Origin: an uncultured Gemmatimonadota bacterium | GTDB taxonomy: Bacteria; SM23-81; DAOVCL01 | Length of the DNA: 64,000 bases | NCBI GenBank assembly: GCA_964626665.1 | Contig: CAZVGK010000002.1 | Location: 96,001-160,000, forward strand | Direction: 5' to 3' | Shown: piece after piece, positions 306-58,708 of the stretch | Layout: each line of letters starts with the position of its first letter | Numbering within the stretch: position 1 is the first letter of the stretch | Position numbers and translations under genes: made by a program | Notes under the pieces: generated by a model | What the model was told of the DNA's origin: nothing | Database searches by the model: none | What the model saw: the letters and a program-made list of their open reading frames with translations, nothing else

Positions 306-704
306 ATGGATTTCGGCCCTACTCGCAAGCTAATAACCACCTTCAGCACAATCTCCTTGGCCGATATTATCCTCCTTCTGCTCATCTTCTTTCTCCTCTC
401 CTCCTCCTTCATTGTGCAACCTGGTATAAAGGTTAACCTGCCCAAAACCTCCGCTTCCCAGGTAGAGTCAAAGAAGAGAATCTACCTGACCGTTACCAAA
501 TCGGGCAGTCTCTATCTAAATCAGGAGAAGGTAGGGAAGGGGGAATTAGGAGCCAAATTGCGGGGGCTTCTCTTAGAGAACCCGGGGGAGTTGGTGGTGA
601 TTAAAGCGGACAAGGAGCTTACCCTGCAGGAGATGATAAAGATAATGGATATAGCCAAGAATGCCGGGGCACAGAGGTTCCTCATTGCCACCCAACCGGA
701 ATAG
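306..704 (+). CDS. exbD: ExbD/TolR biopolymer transport protein
   Basis: SLADIILLLLIFF transmembrane segment with conserved Asp; VNLP and IKADK motifs. Confidence 0.9.
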   Translation: MDFGPTRKLITTFSTISLADIILLLLIFFLLSSSFIVQPGIKVNLPKTSASQVESKKRIYLTVTKSGSLYLNQEKVGKGELGAKLRGLLLENPGELVVIKADKELTLQEMIKIMDIAKNAGAQRFLIATQPE

Positions 705-45031: not shown

Positions 45032-46687
45032 ATGAGCAAAAAGGAGAAATTGAAGAGTTTAGTTGACCAGTTCTTAGAAGAGGCCTGGAAGGCAAACCCG
45101 GTTAAGGCTACCTCCCTGGGAATCCACAAATATGACAGTGAGTTAGGTAGTTTCAATAAGGAGGCTGTTTACGATAGGCTTAGCTCATTGAAAGGGTATG
45201 GCAGAAGGCTAAAAACCCAGATCGAGCAAGCCGATCTCGCTGCCGATGAGATCCTCGACTATCGACTTCTGAAAAATGGAATTGATGAAGAGATACTAAA
45301 TCTGGAGGTCATCAGGGATTGGGAGAGAAATCCAGGTTTCTATCTGGATTTAGCCCTTGATGGGTTGTTTTATCTCCTGGTGAGAGAATCTGTCTCCCTT
45401 CAAGAAAGGGCAGAGAACATAATATCCCGATTAGAAAAGATCCCTGAGCTCTTATCCAATGGTCAGAAAAATTTGGTCAACCCGCCGAGGGTTTTCACCC
45501 AAACGGCCATTGATGTTACCAAGGCAGGCCTAAAGTTTATCTCCACAGCTATACCTTCTTTGACTAAAAGAACGAAGGGACTGGGGGCTCCCCTTCTGAC
45601 TTCTCGGGAAAAGGCCCTGGTTGCATTTGAGAAGTATCTTAATTTCCTGGAGAATGAGCTCTATCCCAAGGCCAGCGGCAGATTTGCCATTGGCAGGGAG
45701 GCTTTTATCTATCGCCTTAAATATGGACAAATGCTCGATTATACCCCAGAGGAGCTTTCGGATCTGGCTCAATTCTACCTTGCAGAAACAGAAGAGAAGT
45801 TAAATGAATTAGCTAAGAAAATAGATCCCTATAAAAGCTGGCAGGAGATCTTCTTGGAGATGAAGGGAGAACACCCGGAAAGGGAGGAGGTGATCCCCTT
45901 TTATCGAGTCACGGTTAATAGAGCTCGTAGGTTCGTTATAGATGAAAATTTGGTCTCCATACCCCAGAATGAGTGTTTAAAAATAGTTCCTACGCCGATA
46001 TACCTTAGACCTACCCACCCCTACGCCGCTTACGAACCACCGGCTCCCTACGAAGCAGACCAGACAGGTTTTCTCTATGTCTCCCCGGTTGATGAAAACC
46101 TCCCTCCAGAGGAGCAAGAGGCTAAGCTTAGCTGGCCCGGAGTTTACGGAGTCGACTCTGTTGTAGCCCATGAAACTTATCCTGGGCATCATCTGCAACT
46201 TACCTTAGCCAACTCGATAAGCTCAAAGGTACGGAAGCATTTTACCACCTCACAATTTAAGGAGGGTTGGGCTCTCTATTGCGAGGAGATGATGGGAGAG
46301 CAAGGATTCTATTCCCGAAAAGCTCATATCTTTCAGTTATGGGCTCAATCTGTTAGGACGCTAAGGGTGCTTCTGGATGTGGGATTACATTGCTTTGAAA
46401 TGGGGCTTTCCCAAGCAGAGGAAACCCTCAGGACTAAAGGAGTGATGGAAAGATCTGCCGCTGTCGCAGAGGTAAAACGGTATGCACTTAAGCCCACTCA
46501 ACCATTGAGCTATTTAATTGGCAAATTGGAGATCTTGAAATTACGCAAGGAATATAGTAGGAAAGTTGGTAGAGGATTCAATCCAAAGGATTTCCATAGT
46601 AGATTGCTCAGTTTCGGTTCAATCCCTTTGAGATTGATTCGGGAGGGGTTAATTGGCAAGACGGAAAGAAATATTGAAAACATCTAG
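45032..46687 (+). CDS. DUF885 family protein (putative metallopeptidase-like)
   Basis: P..ATSLG.H.YD, HETYPGHHLQ, EGWALYCE, P.Q.LSY..GK. Confidence 0.9.
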   Translation: MSKKEKLKSLVDQFLEEAWKANPVKATSLGIHKYDSELGSFNKEAVYDRLSSLKGYGRRLKTQIEQADLAADEILDYRLLKNGIDEEILNLEVIRDWERNPGFYLDLALDGLFYLLVRESVSLQERAENIISRLEKIPELLSNGQKNLVNPPRVFTQTAIDVTKAGLKFISTAIPSLTKRTKGLGAPLLTSREKALVAFEKYLNFLENELYPKASGRFAIGREAFIYRLKYGQMLDYTPEELSDLAQFYLAETEEKLNELAKKIDPYKSWQEIFLEMKGEHPEREEVIPFYRVTVNRARRFVIDENLVSIPQNECLKIVPTPIYLRPTHPYAAYEPPAPYEADQTGFLYVSPVDENLPPEEQEAKLSWPGVYGVDSVVAHETYPGHHLQLTLANSISSKVRKHFTTSQFKEGWALYCEEMMGEQGFYSRKAHIFQLWAQSVRTLRVLLDVGLHCFEMGLSQAEETLRTKGVMERSAAVAEVKRYALKPTQPLSYLIGKLEILKLRKEYSRKVGRGFNPKDFHSRLLSFGSIPLRLIREGLIGKTERNIENI

Positions 46688-48210
46688 ATATTCTTGACTT
46701 CCTTTCTCTCCTTTTCCAGTTCCTTTATCCTCCTCTCTGCTGGTCCCTTTCGGTCTAAGCCGAACCTCAATCTGAGTTCTTTCATCTTCATAACTGCCTC
46801 ATAGCTCACATCTACGATCTCCTCTCGGCTCATCGACTCTGTCTCATAGTTAAGCATCAGCTTCCATTCGGGACTTGTGATTGCCTCTATATGATCCTCT
46901 AAACTCCTGAAGAGAAGCCTGTAACCATACCTCTCTGGATTCTCAAAGGCTGGGCTGCCCGGGTCAATAAATGGTTCCAGTGGGGCAATTACTGGCTCTA
47001 TCCTCTGGGGATACCTCTTTTTATATCTTTCCAGAAGGGTTTCTGCATAATCGATGGTCTGGTGGACCGATTTGCGGGTTTGGTGGGGCAGCCCGATCAT
47101 AAAAAACAGTTGAACCTTTGCCGCCCCCGCCTTCAATGCATTTTTGATGGTCTCCTCTAAGCTCTCATTGCTGTAATTTTTCCCAAAGAACTTTCTTATT
47201 CTCTCATCGTGGGTTTCTGGGGAGAGTGAGATGACAAATCTGGGGGTGGCTGAACCTATCTTCTTGAGGAATTCCAACTTTGCTCCCCAGAAAAGCTCAT
47301 ACTTCACCCTGTTTTTAACCCTCTTTTTCCTGATTGCTTCAAGTAACTCCTCTGAGTTGCCCATCCTGATGTCTCCATAAAGGACGATATCAAATGGTGA
47401 AAAGTGGCTAATGATATCCATCTCTTTGGCTATGATCTGAGGGCTTCTCTGGCCTATCTTCTTTCTTCCCAGGGCCCAATTTGATCCTCCACAAGTTACA
47501 CACCTTAAGAGACAGCCTCGACAGGTGATAAGAGCGCTGGCAAATTTCATTGGCCACCTGGTTCCGGTAAGGAGGTTGCCCCTCAGGTCCCTATATTTAA
47601 ATATTGATTTTAAAAGGCTTTTGTAGTTAATCATAATATGCAATTCTTCTGGCAGATAAGAGAAGGGATTGGTGTGGGTTTTGTCATTTTCCTTCCAGGT
47701 CAGATTGGGAACCCGGTGGGGAGATTTGCCGCTTTCGATACATCGCAAAAGTTCAAGTAATGGCCCTTCAGTGGAATCACCTCTGAGCACATAATCAACA
47801 AACGGATATTTGATCAAATCACGGTGATAATAGGATGCCGATAGCCCTCCGAGGATCATCGGGGTCTGGGGATGAACTCTCTTCACTATTTTGGCCACCT
47901 CCAAGCTCCCCTGGGCATGGACCAACCAGTGTAAGTCAAGGCCAAAGGCCATAGGATCAAGCCCCCTGATGAATTTCTCCACAGCGAATTTAGGATGACC
48001 CTTCATCTTAACGGCTAAGTTGACAATCCGTACGGAGAAGCCGTTTCTCTCCAAGAAATCCATTATACTCAGGAATCCGATAGGGAAATACTCAAAGATA
48101 GGGGAACTGGCAATGGTTCCACCAATTAACCCCCAATTTGTCCTCTTCTGGCGGAAGTCATAGAGACTGGGAGGATGAAGCAAGATCAGGTGAGGCGATT
48201 TTCCTTTCAT
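46684..48210 (-). CDS. B12-binding domain/radical SAM protein (TIGR04190-like)
   Basis: LLHPPSLYDFR, DLHWLVH..G, GGLSASYY, CLLRCVTC; likely ATG 48210. Confidence 0.85.
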   Translation of the reverse strand: MKGKSPHLILLHPPSLYDFRQKRTNWGLIGGTIASSPIFEYFPIGFLSIMDFLERNGFSVRIVNLAVKMKGHPKFAVEKFIRGLDPMAFGLDLHWLVHAQGSLEVAKIVKRVHPQTPMILGGLSASYYHRDLIKYPFVDYVLRGDSTEGPLLELLRCIESGKSPHRVPNLTWKENDKTHTNPFSYLPEELHIMINYKSLLKSIFKYRDLRGNLLTGTRWPMKFASALITCRGCLLRCVTCGGSNWALGRKKIGQRSPQIIAKEMDIISHFSPFDIVLYGDIRMGNSEELLEAIRKKRVKNRVKYELFWGAKLEFLKKIGSATPRFVISLSPETHDERIRKFFGKNYSNESLEETIKNALKAGAAKVQLFFMIGLPHQTRKSVHQTIDYAETLLERYKKRYPQRIEPVIAPLEPFIDPGSPAFENPERYGYRLLFRSLEDHIEAITSPEWKLMLNYETESMSREEIVDVSYEAVMKMKELRLRFGLDRKGPAERRIKELEKERKEVKNI

Positions 48211-48377
48211 TGTAGCTATCCTTTCATATTCAGGGCCAAACCGAATTTCAGGGGGTATGGAGCTCCTGACGAAAGATAACCTACATTGCCATTTTGTCAA
48301 GCTCTTTGGGCTCCTTGGATCTTCAGGTAGTTAACCTTTGACATTTTGGAATTTCTCAGAGAATTCGAAGCATCCTG

Positions 48378-48629: not shown

Positions 48630-51600
48630 CTATCGCAAGAGCAACATCTTCCTGGTGAAGATGTAATCACCCGCCCGGATCCGGTAAAAGTAAATTCCAC
48701 TGGCCAGACTTTTCCCTTTAGCACTTCTTCCATCCCAGGTGACCCTGTGGATTCCCGCCTCCTTTTGCCCATCTACCAAGGTAACTACCCTTTGACCGAG
48801 CAAATTATAAACCTCCATTTTGACATAGACGCGGTGGGAGATGCAGTATTCTATGTTAGTCGCCGAGTTGAACGGATCTGGATAATTCTGACCCAAGGAG
48901 AAAGTAATTGGCTGTTGATTCTGAGGGTGGGTTTCCACCTCCGTCTCCTCTACTACCTCGAATACCCCATCAACCAAGGTTGGGCGATCCACAGGACTGT
49001 TGTCATAGCTGGCCAGGTCGTTAAAGTAGTATCGGGACTGGTCAAATACAACGGGGTAATCTCCCAATGGAGCATCAGGCGAGATGGTGAACACCACCTT
49101 AGCTATAGGACCAGATCCTATAGGCATTGGATAGCAGGTATCTGAACTCCAGTCCTCATAAATGCCCAAGACATTGACCACTCCAGAATCAATTCGGACT
49201 GAAAAGATTTTAAACGAATCCGTGCGAGTGGTGCGTTCCACCCTGGTAGCAGTTAGTATTGAGCTGTCAAAGGCAATCTGGAAATCAAATGCCGCAAGCA
49301 CAAAGGAGTTGACCAAGGAGACAGGTAGAACAATCCCTGTATCCCCTGGAGAGCCCGTGGCACCTTCCACTATCAGGCTATCCTTATCGCTGGGATCACC
49401 CATCATAGCAAGGCTCCCAGAGGATTTCTCCTCCTGAGGGGGGCCGACTGAACCATTGATGATATTCACCAGATAACAAAGGTCAGCAATAGTCCAGTAA
49501 TGTCCATCTCCATTCAGATCAGAGGCAATTTCCTGCTCCTCATCTGGACAGTCATCATCGGCAATATCAATGTGTTCCTTAATATATTCTATCCAAAACA
49601 CAGCATCATCAACTGTATATGCCTGCCTATCACAGTTCACATCGCTCAGGATATATGGGTATTCGGGAATGCCATGTGCCGCCCAAAGATTCCTCATCGC
49701 CTCCGAAGCACCATATATATCAGACCAGCCCGTGCAGAATTGCCTGATGTTGTAGGGGTTGTGGTCGTTAACCTTGAATACATCCAGGACAGACCATATC
49801 GTTAAGTAGATCTCGCTAACCCCCACATCATTATTGCAGTCATCCACATCGTCATCAGAGTCATACATATCCCACAAAAGGGCAGTTACCTGGGCCTCGA
49901 TGCTGTCACCGGGAAGTGGACAGGGTTCGGTTCTGCCACTGGGACAGGGCTCACCCACCGGCATCAGAGTGTCACAGCAGTTCTCACCGTTCATACAATA
50001 ATAGAACCCCTCATTTGCCATTCTATTCAAAAATCGCGGATCATCATTAACCGCCATACTGAAGAAGTTGGCCCATCCCTCACAGTATGCACTGTTTGGA
50101 TGTTGAGGCTTAGACCAATAGTGAGTTCCACCAATATGGGGAGGAATACTACTACCCCCATACCCGAACATAACATAGTGACCATATTCATGATAGATCG
50201 CGTTCTCATCCCATTGATCCTCATCTCCGGCATCAGAACGAATCGTTATCACGCGGTCACTTAGTCTATATCCGCTCCCGTGGATTTCTGGCCCCCACTC
50301 AACCTCAACCCTATCCGGCGGTGTCCCGATGGTGGCAAAATCTCTGGCGATCCCGGTTGTCCGACAGATGTTTAGCGCCGAAGAGATATTCCAGTCCGAC
50401 TCACAAGTCCAGGTTCCCCAGTCTAAAATGTCATTGTCAGGGATTAACTGGGCAACATTTTCGCAATAAACATACCTCCCCCAGACATGGTCATGATCGT
50501 CATTTACAAAGACATCAGCCGCTTCTGCCTGTGAGATAATCCAAACCTGGACGTAGCAAATGTTAACATTCTCAAATGTCCAATGGCCGGTGTTGTCGGT
50601 ATAAGTCACCTCTACCTGTTCACCAGTATCACCATCAATCAACCTGATCTGAGTATTGGGACAGACCCGGGTATCTCCTGGTTCTTTCCCATAAACATAT
50701 TGGTAAATACCATGCAGAGAAAAGTTGGCGATAACCCGCACACTTCCTCCATAATAATCCTGTCCTCCGTAGGATGCCCAGATTTCTCCTGTTCCCGCAG
50801 AGCTCCCAGCGTTGAGTATGGCCTTGTGAGTAGTAAGATTCTCCTCCACGCTTCCTAAACTGGATGGCGTTACCCACCAACTATCCATATCCACCACATT
50901 CCCCCATTGATCTTCAAACCAGAATTCTACGGCGGATGGATGGTTGACAACAGCCTGGATGTCATAGCTCCCCTTGGGAGATGACTCATTCAGCTTGAGG
51001 GGTATCCCGATGCCCGGGTTCTTTTTTCTCCATAGTTCATGCGATAAGCTATCATACTCCTGCTGCAGGCTGTCCAGGAGAGCGCTGAGGCTGTCTTGGT
51101 CAACAGAGTCACAAGGAGCTATTTCCCTGCCCTTGGCATCAAGTCGCGGGGCAACATTAAGCAAGGGCGGTCCCCACCTAACCCCAGGGGGATGCCCACT
51201 TGTGTCCTTTGGCACCTTACCCTCCTCAACCTCTTTCAGCTCCTTCTTCAGTTCCTCAATCGCCTTCTTGATCATCTTAACCCTGGGGTCCGGAGCACCC
51301 TTAACCTTGATCTGGATTACTTTATCACCAAATCCAGAGACGGAATACTTTTTTTCTCCACTGGGATAATAACCCTTAACATCGAAATAACCATAGCATA
51401 GAAAGCGTTCCCTCTCGACCGGTTTAATCACAATCTCTCGTACAACAGTTTCACCCATGCCTGCAGCCCCGCTCCAAAGGGTATCCCCGCTTATGACTTC
51501 CATTCCTCCTGGTATTTTAAATCTGATAGTTGCCTTTTCTGCCACCAGTCTGCCGCCCGCTGAACATTCCAACCGAAGGGTTACCTCCTCATTTAAGTCG

Positions 51601-51791
51601 GGATTTATCTCTGTGGCAAAAAGTTTGATCTCAGGCCCTGTGCTTGAGCCTCCTATATCAGAATAGGGAAACTTGGGATTGGTAGTGGCAGTGTCGGAAT
51701 TGGAGGTCTCAGAAGTGATGATTGTAGCCAGGGTTTGCACTGACAATACCAGTGCAAACAGGACGATCAATAAGTTTAAGACCCGTTTCAT
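48630..51791 (-). CDS. Secreted multidomain zinc metalloprotease-like protein with dockerin-like, cohesin-like and FlgD-Ig/T9SS-type C-terminal domains
   Basis: Start ATG 51791 with signal peptide; HEYGH..EGWANF (gluzincin-like); SDVNCD/SDLNGDG repeats; LPVSL..FDFQIAFD; QNYPDPFN..WDG..SGIYFYRI..KMLLLR. Confidence 0.85.
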   Translation of the reverse strand: MKRVLNLLIVLFALVLSVQTLATIITSETSNSDTATTNPKFPYSDIGGSSTGPEIKLFATEINPDLNEEVTLRLECSAGGRLVAEKATIRFKIPGGMEVISGDTLWSGAAGMGETVVREIVIKPVERERFLCYGYFDVKGYYPSGEKKYSVSGFGDKVIQIKVKGAPDPRVKMIKKAIEELKKELKEVEEGKVPKDTSGHPPGVRWGPPLLNVAPRLDAKGREIAPCDSVDQDSLSALLDSLQQEYDSLSHELWRKKNPGIGIPLKLNESSPKGSYDIQAVVNHPSAVEFWFEDQWGNVVDMDSWWVTPSSLGSVEENLTTHKAILNAGSSAGTGEIWASYGGQDYYGGSVRVIANFSLHGIYQYVYGKEPGDTRVCPNTQIRLIDGDTGEQVEVTYTDNTGHWTFENVNICYVQVWIISQAEAADVFVNDDHDHVWGRYVYCENVAQLIPDNDILDWGTWTCESDWNISSALNICRTTGIARDFATIGTPPDRVEVEWGPEIHGSGYRLSDRVITIRSDAGDEDQWDENAIYHEYGHYVMFGYGGSSIPPHIGGTHYWSKPQHPNSAYCEGWANFFSMAVNDDPRFLNRMANEGFYYCMNGENCCDTLMPVGEPCPSGRTEPCPLPGDSIEAQVTALLWDMYDSDDDVDDCNNDVGVSEIYLTIWSVLDVFKVNDHNPYNIRQFCTGWSDIYGASEAMRNLWAAHGIPEYPYILSDVNCDRQAYTVDDAVFWIEYIKEHIDIADDDCPDEEQEIASDLNGDGHYWTIADLCYLVNIINGSVGPPQEEKSSGSLAMMGDPSDKDSLIVEGATGSPGDTGIVLPVSLVNSFVLAAFDFQIAFDSSILTATRVERTTRTDSFKIFSVRIDSGVVNVLGIYEDWSSDTCYPMPIGSGPIAKVVFTISPDAPLGDYPVVFDQSRYYFNDLASYDNSPVDRPTLVDGVFEVVEETEVETHPQNQQPITFSLGQNYPDPFNSATNIEYCISHRVYVKMEVYNLLGQRVVTLVDGQKEAGIHRVTWDGRSAKGKSLASGIYFYRIRAGDYIFTRKMLLLR

Positions 51792-51811
51792 TTCAAACAC
51801 CTCTTTCCTTT

Positions 51812-51874
51812 CTAAAAGGTTAACAACCCTGGATACCCTGATTGAGCATCCGCTACCTCCTTGAGCTTCTCCAT
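51812..51874 (-). CDS. Candidate 20-aa leader ORF MEKLKEVADAQSGYPGLLTF, copy 1
   Basis: AAGGAGGT SD 4 nt before ATG; conserved in three copies. Confidence 0.45.
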   Translation of the reverse strand: MEKLKEVADAQSGYPGLLTF

Positions 51875-52013
51875 CCACACCTCCTTTCAATTGAGAGTTT
51901 AAGGTTTACTTTTCCTTTTGATTTACAAACCAGATAATTACAAAGTGTTCTTATAGTTGCTCTATCTATGAAGCTCTTCTCTTAAAAATACAGGATATTT
52001 ATTGATGTTCTCT

Positions 52014-52868
52014 TTAAGATTTAAGGAACTGTGTTCTTTTGACTTTACCCTCTCCTACCGCCTGGAGATCATAGCTCCCCTTGGGAGATGACTCATTAAG
52101 CTTGAGGGGTATCCCGATGCCCGGGTTCTTCTTCCTGTATAGTTCATGCGATAAGCTATCATACTCCTGCTGCAAGCTATCCAGGATAGCTCTCAAGCTA
52201 TCAGGGATAAGAGTATCAGCGGGGACTACTTCCACTCCGCTGGGGGTAAGCTTTGGAGCGCCAAATAAGGGCTCGACAATTCTAAACCCAGGGGGATGCC
52301 CACTTGTGTCCTTTGGCACCTTACCCTCCTCAACCTCCTTCAGCTCCTTCTTCAACTCCTCAATCGCCTTTTTGATCATCTTTATCCTGGGATCCGGTGT
52401 GCCTTTAACAATAAAATCTAGTGAGCGACACTCTGCAAGTCCCCGCTTTCCTTCTGAAAAGACAAATCCCCCAAAGATCCGGAAACGCCGTCTTTGGGTT
52501 GGTTTTACCACGAGTTCTCTAACTGCCTTTCCCCCCTTCTCCATATTAACTGTCCAAACAGTGTCATTGCTTACAACTTCAACCCACGAAGGAATCCTGT
52601 AAAACAGAATAGTTGAGTTTGGGGCATTAATAAGAGGGCTGCATTCGAGTCTAAAAGTAATTAGCTCATTAAGATCAACCTCCATTTTCGCTCTATCTGC
52701 AGAAAGCTTAATTTGTACTGGGGCCACCTGCATTTCACCGCCACCACTATCTACATAAACAAACTCGGTTTGGCTCTTTTTCTCCGTTGAAATCCCATCA
52801 AGTGCCAGGGTAGCCTGCACTGGAAAAAACAGTACTACCAATATGATTACCACCAAGACCCGTTTCAT
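52014..52868 (-). CDS. Secreted protein, stand-alone homolog of the protease N-terminal region (variant N-domain)
   Basis: Signal peptide; shares KAIEELKKELKEVEEGKVPKDTSGHPPG and LDSLQQEYDSLSHEL..SPKGSYD with 48630-51791. Confidence 0.75.
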   Translation of the reverse strand: MKRVLVVIILVVLFFPVQATLALDGISTEKKSQTEFVYVDSGGGEMQVAPVQIKLSADRAKMEVDLNELITFRLECSPLINAPNSTILFYRIPSWVEVVSNDTVWTVNMEKGGKAVRELVVKPTQRRRFRIFGGFVFSEGKRGLAECRSLDFIVKGTPDPRIKMIKKAIEELKKELKEVEEGKVPKDTSGHPPGFRIVEPLFGAPKLTPSGVEVVPADTLIPDSLRAILDSLQQEYDSLSHELYRKKNPGIGIPLKLNESSPKGSYDLQAVGEGKVKRTQFLKS

Positions 52869-52888
52869 CTTAAACACCTCTTTCCTTT

Positions 52889-52951
52889 CTAAAAGGTTAA
52901 CAACCCTGGATACCCTGATTGAGCATCCGCTACCTCCTTGAGCTTCTCCAT
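52889..52951 (-). CDS. Candidate 20-aa leader ORF, copy 2
   Basis: Identical to copy 1. Confidence 0.45.
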   Translation of the reverse strand: MEKLKEVADAQSGYPGLLTF

Positions 52952-53090
52952 CCACACCTCCTTTCAATTGAGAGTTTAAGGTTTACTTTTCCTTTTGATT
53001 TACAAACCAGATAATTACAAAGTGTTCTTATAGTTGCTCTATCTATGAAGCTCTTCTCTTAAAAATACAGGATATTTATTGATGTTCTCT

Positions 53091-53978
53091 TTAAGATTTA
53101 AGGAACTGTGTTCTTTTGACTTTACCCTCTCCTACCGCCTGGAGATCATAGCTCCCCTTGGGAGATGACTCATTAAGCTTGAGGGGTATCCCGATGCCCG
53201 GGTTCTTCTTCCTGTATAGTTCATGCGATAAGCTATCATACTCCTGCTGCAAGCTATCCAGGATAGCTCTCAAGCTATCAGGGATAAGAGTATCAGCGGG
53301 GACTACTTCCACTCCGCTGGGGGTAAGCTTTGGAGCGCCAAATAAGGGCTCGACAATTCTAAACCCAGGGGGATGCCCACTTGTGTCCTTTGGCACCTTA
53401 CCCTCCTCAACCTCCTTCAGCTCCTTCTTCAGCTTCTCAATCGCCTTTTTGAGCATCTTCACCCTGGGGTCTGGAGCGCCCTTAACCTTGATCTGGATTC
53501 CCTTATCACCAAATCCAGAGACGGAATACTTCTTGCCTCCATTAACATAATAACCCTTAACATCGAAATAACCATAGCAGAGAAAGCGTTCCCTCTTGAC
53601 CGGTTTAATCACGATCTCTTGCACAACAGTTTCATCCCTGGCTACAGCCCCGCTCCAAAGGGTATCCCCGCTTATGACTTCCATTCCTCCTGGTATTTTG
53701 AATCTGATAGTTGCCTTTTCTGCCTCCACTCTACCACCAGGTGAACATTCTAATCGAAGGGTTATCACCTCATTTAAGTCGGGATTTATCTCTGTGGCAA
53801 AAAGCTTGATCCTCGGCCCTGTGCTCGAGCCCCACTTAGCAGAATAGGGAAACTTGGGATTGGTAGTGGTAGTATAAGACTTGGTGGATGTGGACTTAGA
53901 TGTGTCCACTGTAGCCATAGCTTGCACTAAGAATACCAGTGCAACGAGGACAATCAATAAGCCTAAAATCCGTTTCAT
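53091..53978 (-). CDS. Secreted protein, stand-alone homolog of the protease N-terminal region
   Basis: N-half closely matches 48630-51791; C-half identical to 52014-52868. Confidence 0.78.
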   Translation of the reverse strand: MKRILGLLIVLVALVFLVQAMATVDTSKSTSTKSYTTTTNPKFPYSAKWGSSTGPRIKLFATEINPDLNEVITLRLECSPGGRVEAEKATIRFKIPGGMEVISGDTLWSGAVARDETVVQEIVIKPVKRERFLCYGYFDVKGYYVNGGKKYSVSGFGDKGIQIKVKGAPDPRVKMLKKAIEKLKKELKEVEEGKVPKDTSGHPPGFRIVEPLFGAPKLTPSGVEVVPADTLIPDSLRAILDSLQQEYDSLSHELYRKKNPGIGIPLKLNESSPKGSYDLQAVGEGKVKRTQFLKS

Positions 53979-54578: not shown

Positions 54579-54614
54579 GGTGACAGTTCACCACGGAACC
54601 TCACAGGAAAAAAG

Positions 54615-54892
54615 CAATTAAGAATTAAAAATGAAATTTTCCTGTGCTGGTAGGATGGGAAACCCTTAGGGCTGGAAAATGGAAATTTAGTCTGAGCTGG
54701 TAGGTGCTCTCATCTGACAGTACCACCACCGAGCCGTCAGAACCCCGATTCTGACGGCAAAGGTAGATGGCAGAATCAGGGTTTTGCCACCTCATAATCT
54801 AACCGCAAAGACGCAAAGAACGCAGAGTTTAACGATCTACGAACTACAATCCTCTTATTCGTGAAGATTCGTCCATTCGTGCCATTCGTGTT
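54615..54892. repeat. Pile-up of several palindromic/short-period repeat families
   Basis: GAGCCGTCAGAACCCCGATTCTGACGGC, TGGCAGAATC..TTGCCACCTC, CGCAAAGACGCAAAGAACGCAGAG, ATTCGTG tandem units. Confidence 0.7.
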
Positions 54893-55065
54893 CCTTATTG
54901 GAAGGGGTGGCAGGCAAGGGAGAGCCTACGGGGCATCTCCGCTATTTTATGTTTCCCAAAATGCTGCTTCCAACCACCAAGCAAGAACAAGGCAGCATCG
55001 ACCCTCTCCTTGCCCGCCTTTTAAGCCACGGACATAAGCGGAGACATTTACATTTTTATTCATGT

Positions 55066-55081
55066 AGCAAAAAGTGTGCCT
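55066..55081 (-). promoter_or_regulatory. Sigma54 promoter facing the RNA motif and secreted-protein genes
   Basis: AGGCACACTTTTTGCT (GG-N10-GC). Confidence 0.75.
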
Positions 55082-55196
55082 GAATTGGCCGAAAAAATAA
55101 AAAAGCACTTAGCGAACTAAGTGCCTCAAAAACATAGAGATATTCAACTTGTGAAAAGATGGTTATATCAACTCTTATTAAAACAAAAGCCTATTC

Positions 55197-55297
55197 GTCC
55201 ATTTTTGGACATCATTTTTTGGGCTTACAGAATATCTGTTTATTTAACAAATAGTTAGGAGCGACCAAAAAAGAACGCTATTTGACCAAATTTGGAC
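55197..55297. promoter_or_regulatory. Pair of palindromic candidate enhancer (UAS) sites
   Basis: GTCCAtttTTGGAC (55197-55210) and GACCAaatTTGGAC (55284-55297), 115-215 bp upstream of the sigma54 site. Confidence 0.6.
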
Positions 55298-55315
55298 ACT
55301 CATCCAATAGAATCC

Positions 55316-58261
55316 TCACTCGCCTTCGGTATAAATATTGAGCTTTTTCATTTTGTTGTGTAAGGTAGTGCGTGGAACTCCCAACATGTTTGCCGCTTCA
55401 GTAATCTTCCAATTGCTCTTTTCCAAAGCCGTTAAGCACTCCTCTCTCTCCATCAAAGCTATCTTCTCAGGAAGGGAACCCCCCTTTGGTGGAAGAACAG
55501 ATGCTCTTTTCTTGCCAATCTCCACCAGAGATGGTGTTATTATATCCCCATCTGCCAAGGTTACAGCCCTGCGGATCAGGTTCTTCACTTCCCGCACATT
55601 TCCTGGAAAATCATACTCCATCAGCTTCTCCATGGCCTCTGGGGTCATAATCTTCTTGTGGTGATTCTCTCGGTTAAATCTCTCCAGAAAATAGTTCACT
55701 AATAAAGGCATATCCCCTTTCCTCTGGCGTAAGGGAGGAAGCTCTATGGGAAAACAGTTCAACCTGTAGAAAACATCCTCTCTGAATCTCCCTGCATTCA
55801 CTTCAGCTTGCAAATCCTTGTTGGTGGCTGCAATTACCCTTACATCCACTTTTCTCCACCTGTTATCACCTCTCCTCTGCATCTCTCCTTCCTCCAATAT
55901 CCGCAAGAGCTTTACCTGAAGATCAGGCTTCAAAGTGGAGATTTCATCTAAGAAGATACTTCCCCCATTTGCCTCCTCAAATTTCCCCCTCCGCTCCTGA
56001 GTGGCCCCGGTAAAGGCTCCCTTGATATGGCCAAACAGTTCATCCTCTAGCAGTGACTCCGTTATGCTTGCACAATCCACCGTAACAAATGGCCCCAAAG
56101 CCCTCTGGCTGCTATAATGAATCAGCTTGGCTATCAGCTCCTTGCCAGTCCCAGATTTCCCGGTTAGCAATACCCCCTCCAGCGCGTCTTTTATCTTTTC
56201 TACTACCCTGAGAACCTCCTTCATCTTTTTGTCATCGGTTATCAGCCGGGAAAATCCATAGCTGTCCGCTATCTGATAAGCTTTCAAAACCAGGTTCTCA
56301 GCCTCCAAGCCCTCTACCCTTAGCTCGTCAACTACCCTGTGTATATGCTCAGATGCCGCTACAAAGAATTGCACATCCTCCTGCCTCCACCCTCCCCGAT
56401 CAGGCTTTTGGGCCAGATACAGTATCCCATCCAGCCTCTCCTTTAACCCCAGGGGCATAACCAACAGGGCCCCCACCTTAAGGGAGGAGAACTTCCCATC
56501 GGCAGAGAGCTTCACTGTAAGCCTCCCAGGTTCAAAGGAATTGGTAGCCAAAAGATGCAGTACCTTCTCAGCTTCTTCCTCCCTCAACTTCACTCTCTCC
56601 GCTACCTTTAGACCATCGGTCTCCCTGTAGGCAACAAAGCCCTGATCTGCCCCCACCCTCTCGGCAATGGTATGAAGGAGGCTTTTTAAATGATTCCTCA
56701 ACCCAGCCTCAGATGTGGGCTTGAAGGATAGCTCCTTAAGAAGCAGGTAGGGGTTCTCCTCGGAGTCGGTGGCGCTATCAAGCCGGCTCTCCACCTGAGA
56801 GCGGAGCCTTGCCGTCACTTTCAGAGCCTCTTTCTCACCCAACAGAGTCTCAGCTTCGGCTATGAAATTTAAAACCTCATCGGAATGGGAGAAGAGGAGC
56901 TCAACCCGGGCCATCTCCAGCTTAGCCAAACCACGGTAGTGTCCACATCCAGGCCCCATATCAGAGAACAAACGATCAGCCTCCTGGAGGAGCTCCAGCC
57001 CCCGTTCCCTTTCTTTGAGTGCGGAGGCGGTGAATCTGCCCTGTTCCAATAATGTCCTGCCTAGTTCGAACCTGTCCTCTATGGACTCCAGAACCCTAAC
57101 CGCTTTCTGAAAACTTTCCTTGGCTCCATCTAGGTTGCCCTGAGCCTCAAAGATAAGAGCCTGCACTCTGTAACAACAACCCTCTTCAAACTTATCCCCT
57201 AAAGATTGAGAGATCCTGAGGGCTTCTTGAACACATTCTGAGGCTTCATCAAGGCCTTTTCCCTCAGCTAAGAAAAGCTCTGCCCTTCTCCTCTGCACCT
57301 GGTTTATCAAATCCTTCTGCCCCAGCCTTCTCCCTATGTCCAATGTCCTCTGGTAGCAGTCCCTGGCAAGCCCAAGATCTCCTCTCTCCTTGGCCACATC
57401 TGCCAGGGATTCAAGAGACATCGCTTCAGCCCTTTCATAACTGTGGGCTTGACTTAAAGCTAAGGATTTTTTCAGCAATTCTTCTGAGCCGCCAAGGTCT
57501 CTTTGGAGAGCCTTCAGACGTCCAAGGGATATATATCCATGAGCTAAATGAATTGGATCGCTCATTTTTTTCTTAATCTTAAGACTCCGATTTAAGTAAT
57601 CCTCTGCCTTTGCCCACCTCCCCGTTTTCCGGTAAAGCATTCCTATATTATTCAAGATAAGGGCTTCATTCCGCTTGTTTTCCCTTTTTTGAGCAATGCT
57701 TAAGCCCTCTTTTAAATTGACAAGAGCCTGTTTATAATCAGAGGTGGCGAAGTCTACATTGGCAAGGTAGTTATAGACAATCAACATCTCCATTTCATCA
57801 TCTGCACGACGGAACGTGGATAGGCTATCCTGGAGGAATTTCCTTCCCCGCAAATAATCGCCCAACTGAGCAAATGCTCGGCCAATGAATTTCTGACAGA
57901 GCCCTACAATTTTATGCTGGGCTGTCCCTTTGTAGGATTCATAAATCTTCATGCTGAGATCCTTGGCCTCTTCATCCCTCCCCATCTCCAGTAATACCCT
58001 GGTGAGAAGCAGCCGTGTTCTGGCCAATTCTATCTCATCTCCCAACCGAGCAAAGCTCTCTTCTGCTTCCCTCGCCTCTTTGAGGGCTGAGTTCAAGTCT
58101 CCACTTCTCAGATAACAATAGGCCAACTCCCCCTTAATCTTTGCCTTCTCTTTAGGCTTTGCCTTCTTAAGGGCCTTTTCGTAAAGCCCTATCGCCTGGG
58201 AGAACTTCCCAGAGTCTATGTAATTGGTAGCTGACTTAAGCAGATTCTCAAAGCTATCCAT
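55316..58261 (-). CDS. TPR - GAF-like - sigma54 AAA+ - HTH enhancer-binding protein (no receiver domain)
   Basis: About 480 aa of TPR repeats; GKSGTGKE, GHIKGAFTGA, FLDEI, FPGNVRE, LGVPRTTLHNKMKK. Confidence 0.9.
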   Translation of the reverse strand: MDSFENLLKSATNYIDSGKFSQAIGLYEKALKKAKPKEKAKIKGELAYCYLRSGDLNSALKEAREAEESFARLGDEIELARTRLLLTRVLLEMGRDEEAKDLSMKIYESYKGTAQHKIVGLCQKFIGRAFAQLGDYLRGRKFLQDSLSTFRRADDEMEMLIVYNYLANVDFATSDYKQALVNLKEGLSIAQKRENKRNEALILNNIGMLYRKTGRWAKAEDYLNRSLKIKKKMSDPIHLAHGYISLGRLKALQRDLGGSEELLKKSLALSQAHSYERAEAMSLESLADVAKERGDLGLARDCYQRTLDIGRRLGQKDLINQVQRRRAELFLAEGKGLDEASECVQEALRISQSLGDKFEEGCCYRVQALIFEAQGNLDGAKESFQKAVRVLESIEDRFELGRTLLEQGRFTASALKERERGLELLQEADRLFSDMGPGCGHYRGLAKLEMARVELLFSHSDEVLNFIAEAETLLGEKEALKVTARLRSQVESRLDSATDSEENPYLLLKELSFKPTSEAGLRNHLKSLLHTIAERVGADQGFVAYRETDGLKVAERVKLREEEAEKVLHLLATNSFEPGRLTVKLSADGKFSSLKVGALLVMPLGLKERLDGILYLAQKPDRGGWRQEDVQFFVAASEHIHRVVDELRVEGLEAENLVLKAYQIADSYGFSRLITDDKKMKEVLRVVEKIKDALEGVLLTGKSGTGKELIAKLIHYSSQRALGPFVTVDCASITESLLEDELFGHIKGAFTGATQERRGKFEEANGGSIFLDEISTLKPDLQVKLLRILEEGEMQRRGDNRWRKVDVRVIAATNKDLQAEVNAGRFREDVFYRLNCFPIELPPLRQRKGDMPLLVNYFLERFNRENHHKKIMTPEAMEKLMEYDFPGNVREVKNLIRRAVTLADGDIITPSLVEIGKKRASVLPPKGGSLPEKIALMEREECLTALEKSNWKITEAANMLGVPRTTLHNKMKKLNIYTEGE

Positions 58262-58276
58262 TATCTCCCTTTAGAT

Positions 58277-58630
58277 CTATTTGTTGAAGATCATCTGCCA
58301 GAGAAAGAGAAGCTTTAGTTTCCAGTTGAGGAATGAATCCCTGTTCTTGGTGGTATTTTGGCGCTCCCTCTGATAACTGCTTGTCTGAGTCGAACTGCTA
58401 AGGGAATGTTTAGTTACAGAATGGTTGGCAGGATCAGATGTTGCCTGGTTGTCTCCTCCCGCTGATCCTGAACCACCTTTACCTGAATGATACTCCCAAT
58501 CCCACGGCTCGGCGGCCATAAGCATCCGTCTCTCTTCTTCACTGGCAGATGCCTTTCTCACCGGCAAAAAGCTAACTATGGAAAGAAGAAAGGCTATAGT
58601 CAATAGGATAATACCCAACTTTTTCATCAT
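58277..58630 (-). CDS. Small secreted protein/pre-peptide
   Basis: Signal peptide ending ASA; AEPWDWEY then low-complexity G/S/T linker and hydrophobic C-terminus; ends 15 bp before the activator ATG. Confidence 0.75.
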   Translation of the reverse strand: MMKKLGIILLTIAFLLSIVSFLPVRKASASEEERRMLMAAEPWDWEYHSGKGGSGSAGGDNQATSDPANHSVTKHSLSSSTQTSSYQRERQNTTKNRDSFLNWKLKLLFLWQMIFNK

Positions 58631-58679
58631 CAATCACCTCACAGGGGAAATGTTTCCCAGCAGATTCAAATCAAAACCA

Positions 58680-58708
58680 AATATAACAATCTCAGCCCCC
58701 AAAGTCAA
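58680..58708 (-). promoter_or_regulatory. Sigma70-type promoter of the peptide-activator pair
   Basis: TTGACT-N17-TATATT. Confidence 0.6.

Follow-up and report, generated by a model that had tools for sequence, protein, structure and literature searches.

The DNA examined here is a 64,000-nucleotide stretch (the window) of contig CAZVGK010000002.1 from an uncultured Gemmatimonadota bacterium of salt-marsh sediment, which carries several copies of the regulatory cassette found at positions 55066..58708. All genes and elements of this cassette lie on the minus strand, in the order small open reading frame (ORF), activator gene, palindromes, intrinsic terminator and sigma-54 promoter (Table 1). 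The small ORF encodes a putatively exported protein with an x-P-W motif, and the activator joins a long array of tetratricopeptide repeats (TPR) to a sigma-54-dependent transcription engine. Judging from the way the two proteins vary together across the family, the small-protein motif very probably docks directly on the TPR domain. A preliminary description of the locus had proposed a quorum-sensing-like circuit analogous to the RRNPP peptide-signalling systems; the pairing of the two genes, the motif-TPR covariation and the cassette's own sigma-54 promoter agree with that proposal, whereas an Opp binding protein is absent and no specific relationship to RRNPP receptors was found. The window's own genome (G000; 3.17 Mb, 99.65% complete) was compared with two genomes of the same genus (G001 and G002). 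Loci are labelled L0xx, and the contigs of G000 are labelled C2, C9, C12, C15, C39 and C41. All conclusions are computational, drawn from sequence and from models.

A family of paired genes

The genome holds six modules, comprising five full-length activator paralogues and one that is split over two contig ends. A search of the genome with the small protein gave five matches, all directly upstream of an activator and with no orphan copy, and the most diverged small protein, on contig C41, was recognised by reading ORFs. The congeners carry 13 modules (G001) and at least three (G002). A metagenome scan with an 8-row activator alignment added eight further loci, two extra matches having been excluded as the window's own genome. 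The preliminary description predicted a small ORF beside homologues of the activator, and one lies directly 5' of the activator in 30 of the 30 loci with readable upstream DNA (6 in G000, 13 in G001, 3 in G002 and 8 metagenomic); L041, in which the 5' part of the gene is missing, was left out of this count. The gap between the small ORF and the activator ranges from -35 to +24 nucleotides. No full-length relatives of the activator were found in four genomes of the sister family, and its TPR-specific relatives form about 25 clusters.

Covariation of the motif and the receptor

The residue x that precedes P-W is glutamate in 21 of the 30 pairs and tryptophan in nine, several of these pairs being orthologues of one another. 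Partners of E-type small proteins carry R211 together with K, R or H at position 212 (R211-K212 in the window, 57631..57626), while partners of W-type small proteins carry I or L at 211 and F, L or V at 212. In a discovery set of 16 pairs, the residues of the two classes were fully disjoint in only two columns of the TPR/GAF half, which are adjacent, and the rule was kept in 14 of 14 held-out pairs, in which V also occurs at 212. Across all 30 pairs, columns 211 and 212 are the only two of 441 that separate E-type from W-type, with 500 label shuffles never producing one. In a TPR-domain tree from which both columns had been omitted, x switches at least seven times, and both receptor positions switch class in seven of seven independent contrasts (sign test, p=0.016). 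The co-variation of motif and TPR domain anticipated in the preliminary description is therefore present in every pair and in every independent contrast. A plain mutual-information scan is dominated by clade structure, and the conclusions are drawn from the disjoint-set and independent-contrast tests. The pairing of acid with base, and of tryptophan with aliphatic or aromatic residues, is what direct contact predicts. Because the motif and the TPR domain have changed in step, the small protein and the TPR sensor very probably bind each other.

The ligand codon and the receptor site are ~880 nucleotides apart, and individual loci bear on how the two came to change together. Between L054 and L078, identity is 94-95% to either side of the receptor site and 95% in the small-protein tail, but it falls to 55% over residues 201-220, and x differs as well. 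Given the identity between the two sites, one long conversion tract cannot explain this pattern. L077 combines an E-clade small protein and first repeats with a W-clade receptor block, and its x is W. The W-type small proteins of L049 and L051 are identical; the middle repeats of their activators differ greatly, and residues 211-212 are hydrophobic in both.

On another account, the covariation would be a product of patchy gene conversion and the small protein would not be the ligand; the TPR domain would instead sense the acidic-tryptophan tail of a mini-protein encoded downstream, a cargo precursor or a GAF-bound metabolite. We regard this account as improbable. The family is strongly mosaic, and the same six-residue receptor block occurs in L048, L054 and L077, at three positions on the tree, as patch transfer rather than point mutation would produce. 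However, transfer of a receptor patch leaves the distant ligand codon unchanged, and L054 and L078 differ at both sites. In addition, only two of the 441 columns associate with x, and they do so with complementary chemistry.

The small, probably exported protein

Read from its TTG codon, the small ORF spans 58277..58633 and encodes 118 amino acids; counted from the first ATG (58630), it encodes 117. Translation confirms the leader-bearing protein containing AEPWDWEY that had been reported before, with the leader judged by inspection. The protein consists of four parts, namely a leader, a conserved block, a low-complexity linker and a C-terminal helix, and its length is 101-122 amino acids in 21 aligned members. 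In the window, the leader (residues 1-29) has an MMKK n-region, an 18-residue hydrophobic core and an A-S-A site; inspection of all members gives a basic (K/R) N-terminus, 14-19 hydrophobic residues and an A-x-A-type site. The conserved block typically reads N-T-G-x-E-R-..-M-L-C/M-A-A-x-P-W and is followed by acidic or aromatic residues. A40, P42 and W43 are invariant in the 21 aligned proteins (AEPW is residues 40-43 in the window, 58513..58502), and P-W, whose conservation had been predicted, is invariant across the family. AEPWDWEY had been called the only complex segment of the mature protein. The segment is there, but the C-terminus, which consists of a basic stretch and an aromatic amphipathic helix, is conserved too. 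The linker is a variable, low-complexity run of Ser/Thr/Pro/Gly/Gln whose indels preserve the frame, and the conservation of frame and C-terminal helix indicates that the whole small ORF is translated.

A profile of the 21 small proteins matched only 18 representatives among 1.84 billion clusters, all of them 74-120 amino acids long and all with [E/W]-P-W. No Pfam or NCBIfam family matched the small protein, and its look-alikes in the ESM Atlas score at most 0.80, which is chance level. A lipoprotein reading was set aside, as the protein lacks a lipobox. PEP-CTERM proteins, which have a P-E-P motif directly before a C-terminal transmembrane helix and a basic cluster, were considered owing to the E-P-W, the C-terminal helix and the link to sigma-54. 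This reading was rejected because the motif is not adjacent to the C-terminal helix: x-P-W lies 50-60 residues upstream of it, right after the leader. In L077, a leaderless remnant of a second small ORF (451..672) lies upstream of the intact one and contains A-A-K-P-W, with lysine at the variable position.

The activator and its TPR receptor

The activator and its long TPR array were recovered as described earlier, through the ORF call and Pfam matches to TPR_12 (1.1e-36, in five stretches) and TPR_MalT (2e-25); the paralogues are roughly 930-1010 amino acids long. Matches to Sigma54_activat (2.9e-64, residues 673-840) and AAA_lid_14 (1.1e-21) mark the AAA+ domain, and HTH_8 (7.9e-11) marks the helix-turn-helix (HTH). 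The GAFTGA motif is intact and the HTH is present, in keeping with the preliminary description, and some paralogues have GSFTNA or GAFTDA in place of GAFTGA. For the GAF-like region, the match to GAF lies at its cut-off (22.4 bits), whereas GAF_3 stays below its own (24.1 bits against 27), so that the earlier assignment stands weakly; precomputed PF01590 annotations are found on some homologues. No receiver domain occurs among the 25 of 28 Pfam families listed, as previously stated. The genome encodes rpoN on contig C12 (Sigma54_DBD, 2.3e-56). With an AAA+ domain bearing GAFTGA, a C-terminal Fis-type HTH, a genomic sigma-54 and a -24/-12 promoter, all the hallmarks of a bacterial enhancer-binding protein are present, and the protein counts as a genuine sigma-54 activator whose sensor is unusual.

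AlphaFold2, supplied with a 16-row alignment, models residues 1 to ~500 as a superhelix of 26 helices, or 13 TPRs (predicted local distance difference test score 89.7). By Foldseek and profile search, the nearest solved structures and sequences are the TPRs of LGN/Pins, followed by those of kinesin light chains, both of which bind an extended peptide in a concave groove. The profile search against the PDB gave 1.5e-24 for LGN, 1e-15 to 1e-11 for KLC1/2 and 2.4e-8 for Rap (6t3h); AfsR and Rap phosphatase score far below LGN/Pins and kinesin light chains. The top Foldseek rows are LGN/Pins, OGT, APC/C subunits and similar proteins, and no RRNPP structure appears among the best 50 rows listed for the receptor. 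Successive A-helices carry an invariant polar residue at equivalent positions (N164, N205, R248, E284 and R365); these residues would line the receptor groove, on whose rim TPR geometry would place residues 211-212. Two stretches of the activator, N-Q-V-Q-R-R-R-A at residues 320-327 and F-E-E-G-C-C-Y-R at residues 358-365 (~57302..57167), are invariant in the 8-row alignment, and the second holds an adjacent Cys-Cys pair within the TPR domain.

Table 1. Positions in the window of the cassette features and of the elements transcribed from the sigma-54 promoter.
Feature	Position	Strand	Evidence or sequence
Sigma-70-like promoter of the small ORF-activator operon	58680..58708	-	TTGACT-17-TATATT with TG, 10/12 matches
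Small exported protein, 117 amino acids from first ATG	58277..58630	-	ORF call
Activator, 981 amino acids	55316..58261	-	ORF call; start 15 nucleotides past the small ORF stop
TPR sensor domain, residues 1 to ~500, 13 helix pairs	56762..58261	-	Pfam and AlphaFold2
GAF-like region, residues ~525-640	56342..56689	-	Weak Pfam scores
AAA+ sigma-54 interaction domain with GAFTGA and lid, residues 673-912	55526..56245	-	Pfam
Fis-type HTH_8 DNA-binding domain, residues 935-974	55340..55459	-	Pfam
Distal palindrome, candidate enhancer site	55284..55297	-	GTCCA-AATT-TGGTC, one arm mismatch
Proximal palindrome, candidate enhancer site	55197..55210	-	GTCCA-AAAA-TGGAC, perfect
Intrinsic terminator of the small ORF-activator operon	55092..55127	-	11-base-pair stem and T-run
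Sigma-54 promoter	55066..55081	-	AGGCAC-N5-TTGC
Structured leader RNA, class I, 5' end of the sigma-54 transcript	54903..55047	-	Seven copies compared
Mini-ORF, 53 amino acids	54180..54341	-	tblastn, paralogue comparison
Cargo genes for proteins of 295, 317 and 1086 amino acids	48630..53978	-	ORF call, Pfam, NCBIfam

DNA sites and promoters

The sigma-70 promoter named in the preliminary description is present as a consensus match only; matches of this kind are not rare (8 sites in the region against 4.8 +/- 1.6 in shuffles), and the match is weak evidence on its own. Past the activator, both of the palindromes described earlier were found, but their spacer is N4 rather than N3 and the distal copy has a mismatch in one arm. 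The distal palindrome lies ~210 nucleotides upstream of the -24 element and is matched by a perfect block in L049; the proximal one lies ~129 nucleotides upstream, and L049 has an identical site at -132. Across modules, the palindromes are 80-220 nucleotides upstream of the promoters, and they are candidate enhancer sites for the activator HTH. The sigma-54 promoter sits directly downstream as had been claimed, with one mismatch to TGGCAC-N5-TTGC, and it occupies the same place in the paralogues. In the 17 modules examined, sigma-54-promoter-like sites occur 170-470 nucleotides past the activator stop codon. Strict sigma-54 sites number only 33 in the genome, counting both strands, and four of these follow module activators.

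Between the palindromes and the sigma-54 promoter lies an intrinsic terminator, predicted at 55127..55102, that the preliminary description had overlooked. Hairpins with a conserved stem precede many promoters of the family in this way. Its stem, C[A/G]CTTA[A/G]..[C/T]TAAG[C/T]G, occurs three times in the 3.17-Mb genome, in the window module and on contigs C9 and C12, each time 35-46 nucleotides upstream of a module promoter, and it is kept among paralogues whose flanking sequences are not conserved. The stem may serve additionally as a palindrome to which a protein binds.

Transcript output

Sigma-54 transcripts begin with conserved structured leaders, which fall into three classes, and the RNA motif reported downstream of the promoter was borne out as a class I leader. 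The seven class I copies support 45 predicted pairs, three of them with compensatory changes; the sequences are close to one another, which makes this a weak covariation signal. The leader RNA gave nothing at the Rfam gathering threshold, and three matches to eukaryotic families (E>0.3) are attributable to chance. In the C41 class (L019 on C41 itself, ~170-300 nucleotides past the activator stop, together with L047 and L023), the RNA is ~110 nucleotides long, has a GC-rich terminator hairpin of its own and is followed by no mini-ORF, other ORF or cargo, so the output of this class appears to be a small RNA alone. In the other classes, the leader is broken by dispersed repeats resembling repetitive extragenic palindromes, which in the window occupy ~54600..54900 on the minus strand and have more than 150 blastn matches genome-wide.

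The same transcript carries a mini-ORF of 52-59 codons, whose product is highly charged (rich in lysine and glutamate) and has no leader. Its core reads L-E-L-D-Q-E-K-P-P-K-K-K-G-x-W-Q, and its C-terminus is D-D-W in the window and D-P-S-D-W in paralogues (L016, L017, L018, L021 and modules of G001). Within the genome, tblastn at E<=0.004 finds it only in the modules on C2, C39, C15, C9 and C12. The mini-ORF product matched no Pfam family, and it may act as a feedback ligand of the TPR domain. A module-specific cytoplasmic protein with a tryptophan-acidic tail speaks for the account in which the small protein is not the ligand. Motifs of this sort, C-terminal ones included, are bound by TPRs like those of kinesin light chains (PMC6214655). 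Nevertheless, the tail is nearly invariant and offers no source of paralogue specificity, and modules of the C41 type hold a small protein and an activator without a mini-ORF.

The cargo was previously described as protease genes, a claim that was not confirmed: the proteins of 295, 317 and 1086 amino acids match no protease family, and the only Pfam and NCBIfam models matched are those for the type IX secretion tail, FlgD_ig and Cohesin. The 1086-residue protein carries Cohesin, FlgD_ig and the type IX secretion tail (TIGR04183, 7.6e-10), and the 295- and 317-residue proteins (52014..53978) are secreted paralogues with identical C-terminal ~100 residues. Cargo proteins in the family mostly have a type IX secretion tail, with an outer-membrane-like protein in its place in L058. 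At the DNA level, the start of the 1086-residue gene (48630..51890) resembles that of the 295- and 317-residue genes. A B12-binding radical SAM gene follows the cargo at 46684..48300.

The nature of the cargo bears on whether the small protein could be an envelope helper, or a first cargo, linked to the regulator by no more than a common operon. Its leader is of the export type, and most modules end in type-IX-secreted or outer-membrane proteins, as this explanation would have it. It is, however, very improbable: the small protein stays with the activator while cargo differs between TPR orthologues (the window and L058), C41-type modules have no cargo at all, and the covariation with a cytoplasmic TPR domain is left unaccounted for.

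Exchange of sensor and output halves

Divergence of the small protein tracks that of the TPR domain (Mantel r=0.71, p=0.0005) and, to a lesser degree, that of the GAF region (0.35), and it is not tracked by the AAA+ domain (0.14, p=0.07) or the HTH (0.14, p=0.08). Between the TPR and AAA+ domains themselves, the Mantel correlation is only 0.27. Single pairs display the same split: the AAA+ domains of the window and L028 are 80% identical against 40% for the TPR domains, those of L052 and L053 are 100% identical against 67%, and those of L049 and L057 are 91% identical against 44%. These values indicate that paralogues recently exchanged output (C-terminal) halves. The HTH of the window module is nearly identical to that of L049, and both modules have the same pair of palindromes at matching distances, even though their TPR domains are 36% and their AAA+ domains 49% identical. 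L055/L058, the window's TPR orthologue, has a different HTH and TGTCAA-N6-TTGACA instead. In these comparisons, HTH type and DNA sites travel together.

A proposed mechanism and the route of the ligand

Around the observed anatomy, family-wide pairing, motif-receptor covariation and promoter placement, we infer the following direction of control and ligand route. From the sigma-70 promoter, an operon would be transcribed for two products: the small protein, exported through Sec, and the sigma-54 activator, which stays in the cytoplasm and bears a 13-repeat TPR superhelix. The small protein, or a fragment of it, would dock its x-P-W in the TPR groove with x against residues 211-212, Glu pairing with Arg-Lys/Arg and Trp with Ile/Leu-Phe/Leu/Val. 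Occupancy of the groove would switch the TPR/GAF module between restraining and freeing the AAA+ domain. Once freed, this domain would assemble at paralogue-specific palindromes past its own gene and open the adjacent sigma-54 promoter. That promoter would drive the leader RNA (in some paralogues only a terminated small RNA of ~110 nucleotides), a 53-residue mini-protein with an acidic-tryptophan tail and mostly type-IX-secreted cargo.

The route that we favour is export of the small protein, trimming in the envelope and uptake of the motif peptide, possibly through an OPT transporter, in an RRNPP-like arrangement with many orthogonal channels. Re-import is favoured because the leader is conserved, the diverged pairs are many, and close relatives switch between E and W as in pherotype families. 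The cassette is read as a self-contained signal-receptor-output unit, and we put this whole chain, with its export and re-import route, at a probability of about 0.45. The three genomes of the genus each encode one OPT-family oligopeptide transporter, and CstA is also present.

Several points weigh against this reading. Firstly, PF00496, the binding protein of the Opp oligopeptide permease by which RRNPP peptides are re-imported, is absent from the three genus genomes (99.65%, 97% and 90% complete), whereas it is present in 4-8 copies in each of four cassette-free sister-family genomes and in 11 of 14 control genomes; PTR2 is absent from the genus as well. Secondly, the cell is a diderm, so that a signal acting from outside would have to pass the outer membrane on the way out and again on the way in. 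Thirdly, a ligand of 101-122 amino acids with a conserved helix, and a groove of 13 repeats, are easier to reconcile with a long bound segment, or with the entire protein, than with a pheromone of 5-10 residues. The long leader core of 14-19 residues may also be an uncleaved membrane anchor. As DNA sequences, the palindromes are statistically ordinary, since shuffles gave at least two matches in 13 of 100 cases (14-mer, at most two mismatches), and their support comes from comparison rather than from statistics. The tree behind the seven contrasts is approximate because the family is mosaic. Finally, the Mantel result can be explained by linkage alone: the small gene abuts the TPR-coding end of the activator, so linkage contributes to the sensor and output patterns, but it does not explain the two-column covariation.

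Some of these points are met by an export-coupled partnership, which we consider somewhat unlikely. In this explanation, the full-length small protein would bind the TPR domain in the cytoplasm as an anti- or co-activator and be removed by Sec export, following the logic of FlgM and sigma-28, so that activator output would report the rate of export or retention of a partner produced at ~1:1 by coupled translation. No importer is needed, which matches the absence of Opp and PTR2, and gaps of -35 to +24 nucleotides suggest coupled translation. The conserved frame and C-terminal helix, together with the 13 repeats, fit a long bound segment, and the covariation supports binding and is silent on the compartment. 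The small-protein tail and the first TPR repeats also change together in recombinants such as L077, but as DNA neighbours they could do so through plain linkage. What the partnership leaves unexplained is why 6-13 mutually diverged pairs per genome should all read the same Sec flux, and why the contact residue flips between E and W in close relatives. In addition, a long hydrophobic leader generally favours co-translational targeting by the signal recognition particle, leaving little dwell time in the cytoplasm. A search of sequencing runs returned 24 DNA runs from salt-marsh and related metagenomes, with no RNA run among the matches listed.

Comparison with known systems

The RRNPP(A) members with which the cassette is compared are Rap-Phr, NprR-NprX, PlcR-PapR, Rgg-SHP, PrgX and AimR-AimP, from Bacillota and their phages. 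The likeness consists of a cytoplasmic TPR receptor encoded beside a small gene with a Sec-type leader, control of neighbouring genes by the receptor, many diverged paralogous pairs per genome, and co-variation of ligand and receptor. PMC10075063 gives the criteria of RRNPP_detector as a 10-100-residue propeptide with a Sec signal and a TPR receptor of 250-500 residues encoded by adjacent genes. Here the receptor contains TPRs and the genes are directly adjacent (30 of 30), whereas the receptor has 981 residues, and the propeptide, at 101-122 residues, is marginally over the limit and carries its motif near the mature N-terminus. The output is an AAA+ domain with a C-terminal Fis-type HTH rather than an N-terminal XRE-type HTH or a phosphatase, and the host is a diderm whose genus has no Opp binding protein. 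The cassette thus works like an RRNPP pair and is not a homologous member, departing from most of the features that define membership; the detector's defaults (PMC10075063) would not have reported it.

Kinesin light chains offer a parallel in fold and ligand type only. Their TPRs bind a tryptophan flanked by Asp/Glu in a concave groove, in part electrostatically; ligand binding relieves an intramolecular inhibition, and the ligands include tryptophan-acidic and tyrosine-acidic motifs (PMC6214655). The cassette resembles them in its TPR_12-type repeats and in the tryptophan-acidic character of A-E-P-W-D-W-E and of the mini-protein C-terminus. Unlike the activator, the kinesin light chain does not act on transcription but serves a eukaryotic motor as its adaptor, and the residue before P-W can be tryptophan here.

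The usual inputs of sigma-54 activators are kinases or small molecules. LuxO, which drives Qrr in Vibrio, and QseF, which drives GlmY in the QseE/QseG/QseF system of Enterobacteriaceae, are sigma-54 activators with small RNA outputs, and QseG is a small exported lipoprotein. As in those systems, a sigma-54 activator lies beside the sigma-54 promoter of a structured RNA, which is the sole output in C41-type paralogues, and a small exported protein takes part in the circuit. LuxO and QseF are response regulators fed by membrane kinases, whereas the cassette has no receiver and no kinase, and its exported protein varies together with the sensor domain of the activator itself. In FlgM-sigma28, PspA-PspF and NifL-NifA, a dedicated partner protein sets the activity of the factor, and for FlgM export is the signal. 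Unlike the small protein, these partners lack a Sec leader, FlgM being exported by the flagellar apparatus, and neither a TPR sensor nor diversification into many paralogues is known from these systems.

Implications for signalling in the lineage

The abstracts of PMC10075063 and PMC12998947 treat cytoplasmic TPR receptors for secreted peptides as a Gram-positive speciality. A full-text literature search, seen as titles and abstracts, gave no description of a TPR-sigma-54 activator paired with a secreted peptide. We advance only tentatively, as a rather doubtful claim in its full extent, that this may be a peptide-pheromone system built on Gram-positive (RRNPP) logic, the first in a diderm lineage: independently evolved, with 6-13 orthogonal channels per genome, with Glu-Trp pherotype switches each matched by a two-residue change in the groove, wired through sigma-54 to a small RNA and type-IX-secreted surface proteins, and with its halves reshuffled by recombination. 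New here are the presence of several paralogous copies, the covariation at two residues, the recombination of sensor with output halves, and the mini-ORF.

In the cassette, a TPR sensor that probably binds a peptide or protein is fused to a sigma-54 engine, and the lineage that carries it is an uncultured diderm from sediment. It offers a contact pair that can be read from sequence, ligand residue 41 against receptor residues 211-212, and because this contact is predicted, two peptides and two point-mutant receptors would suffice for a direct test of the hypothesis, with no need for a culture. Taken as a family, the modules offer a natural set of orthogonal ligand-receptor-promoter units, and they show a route by which such modules diversify, through compensatory switches in the sensor combined with recombination between sensor and output.

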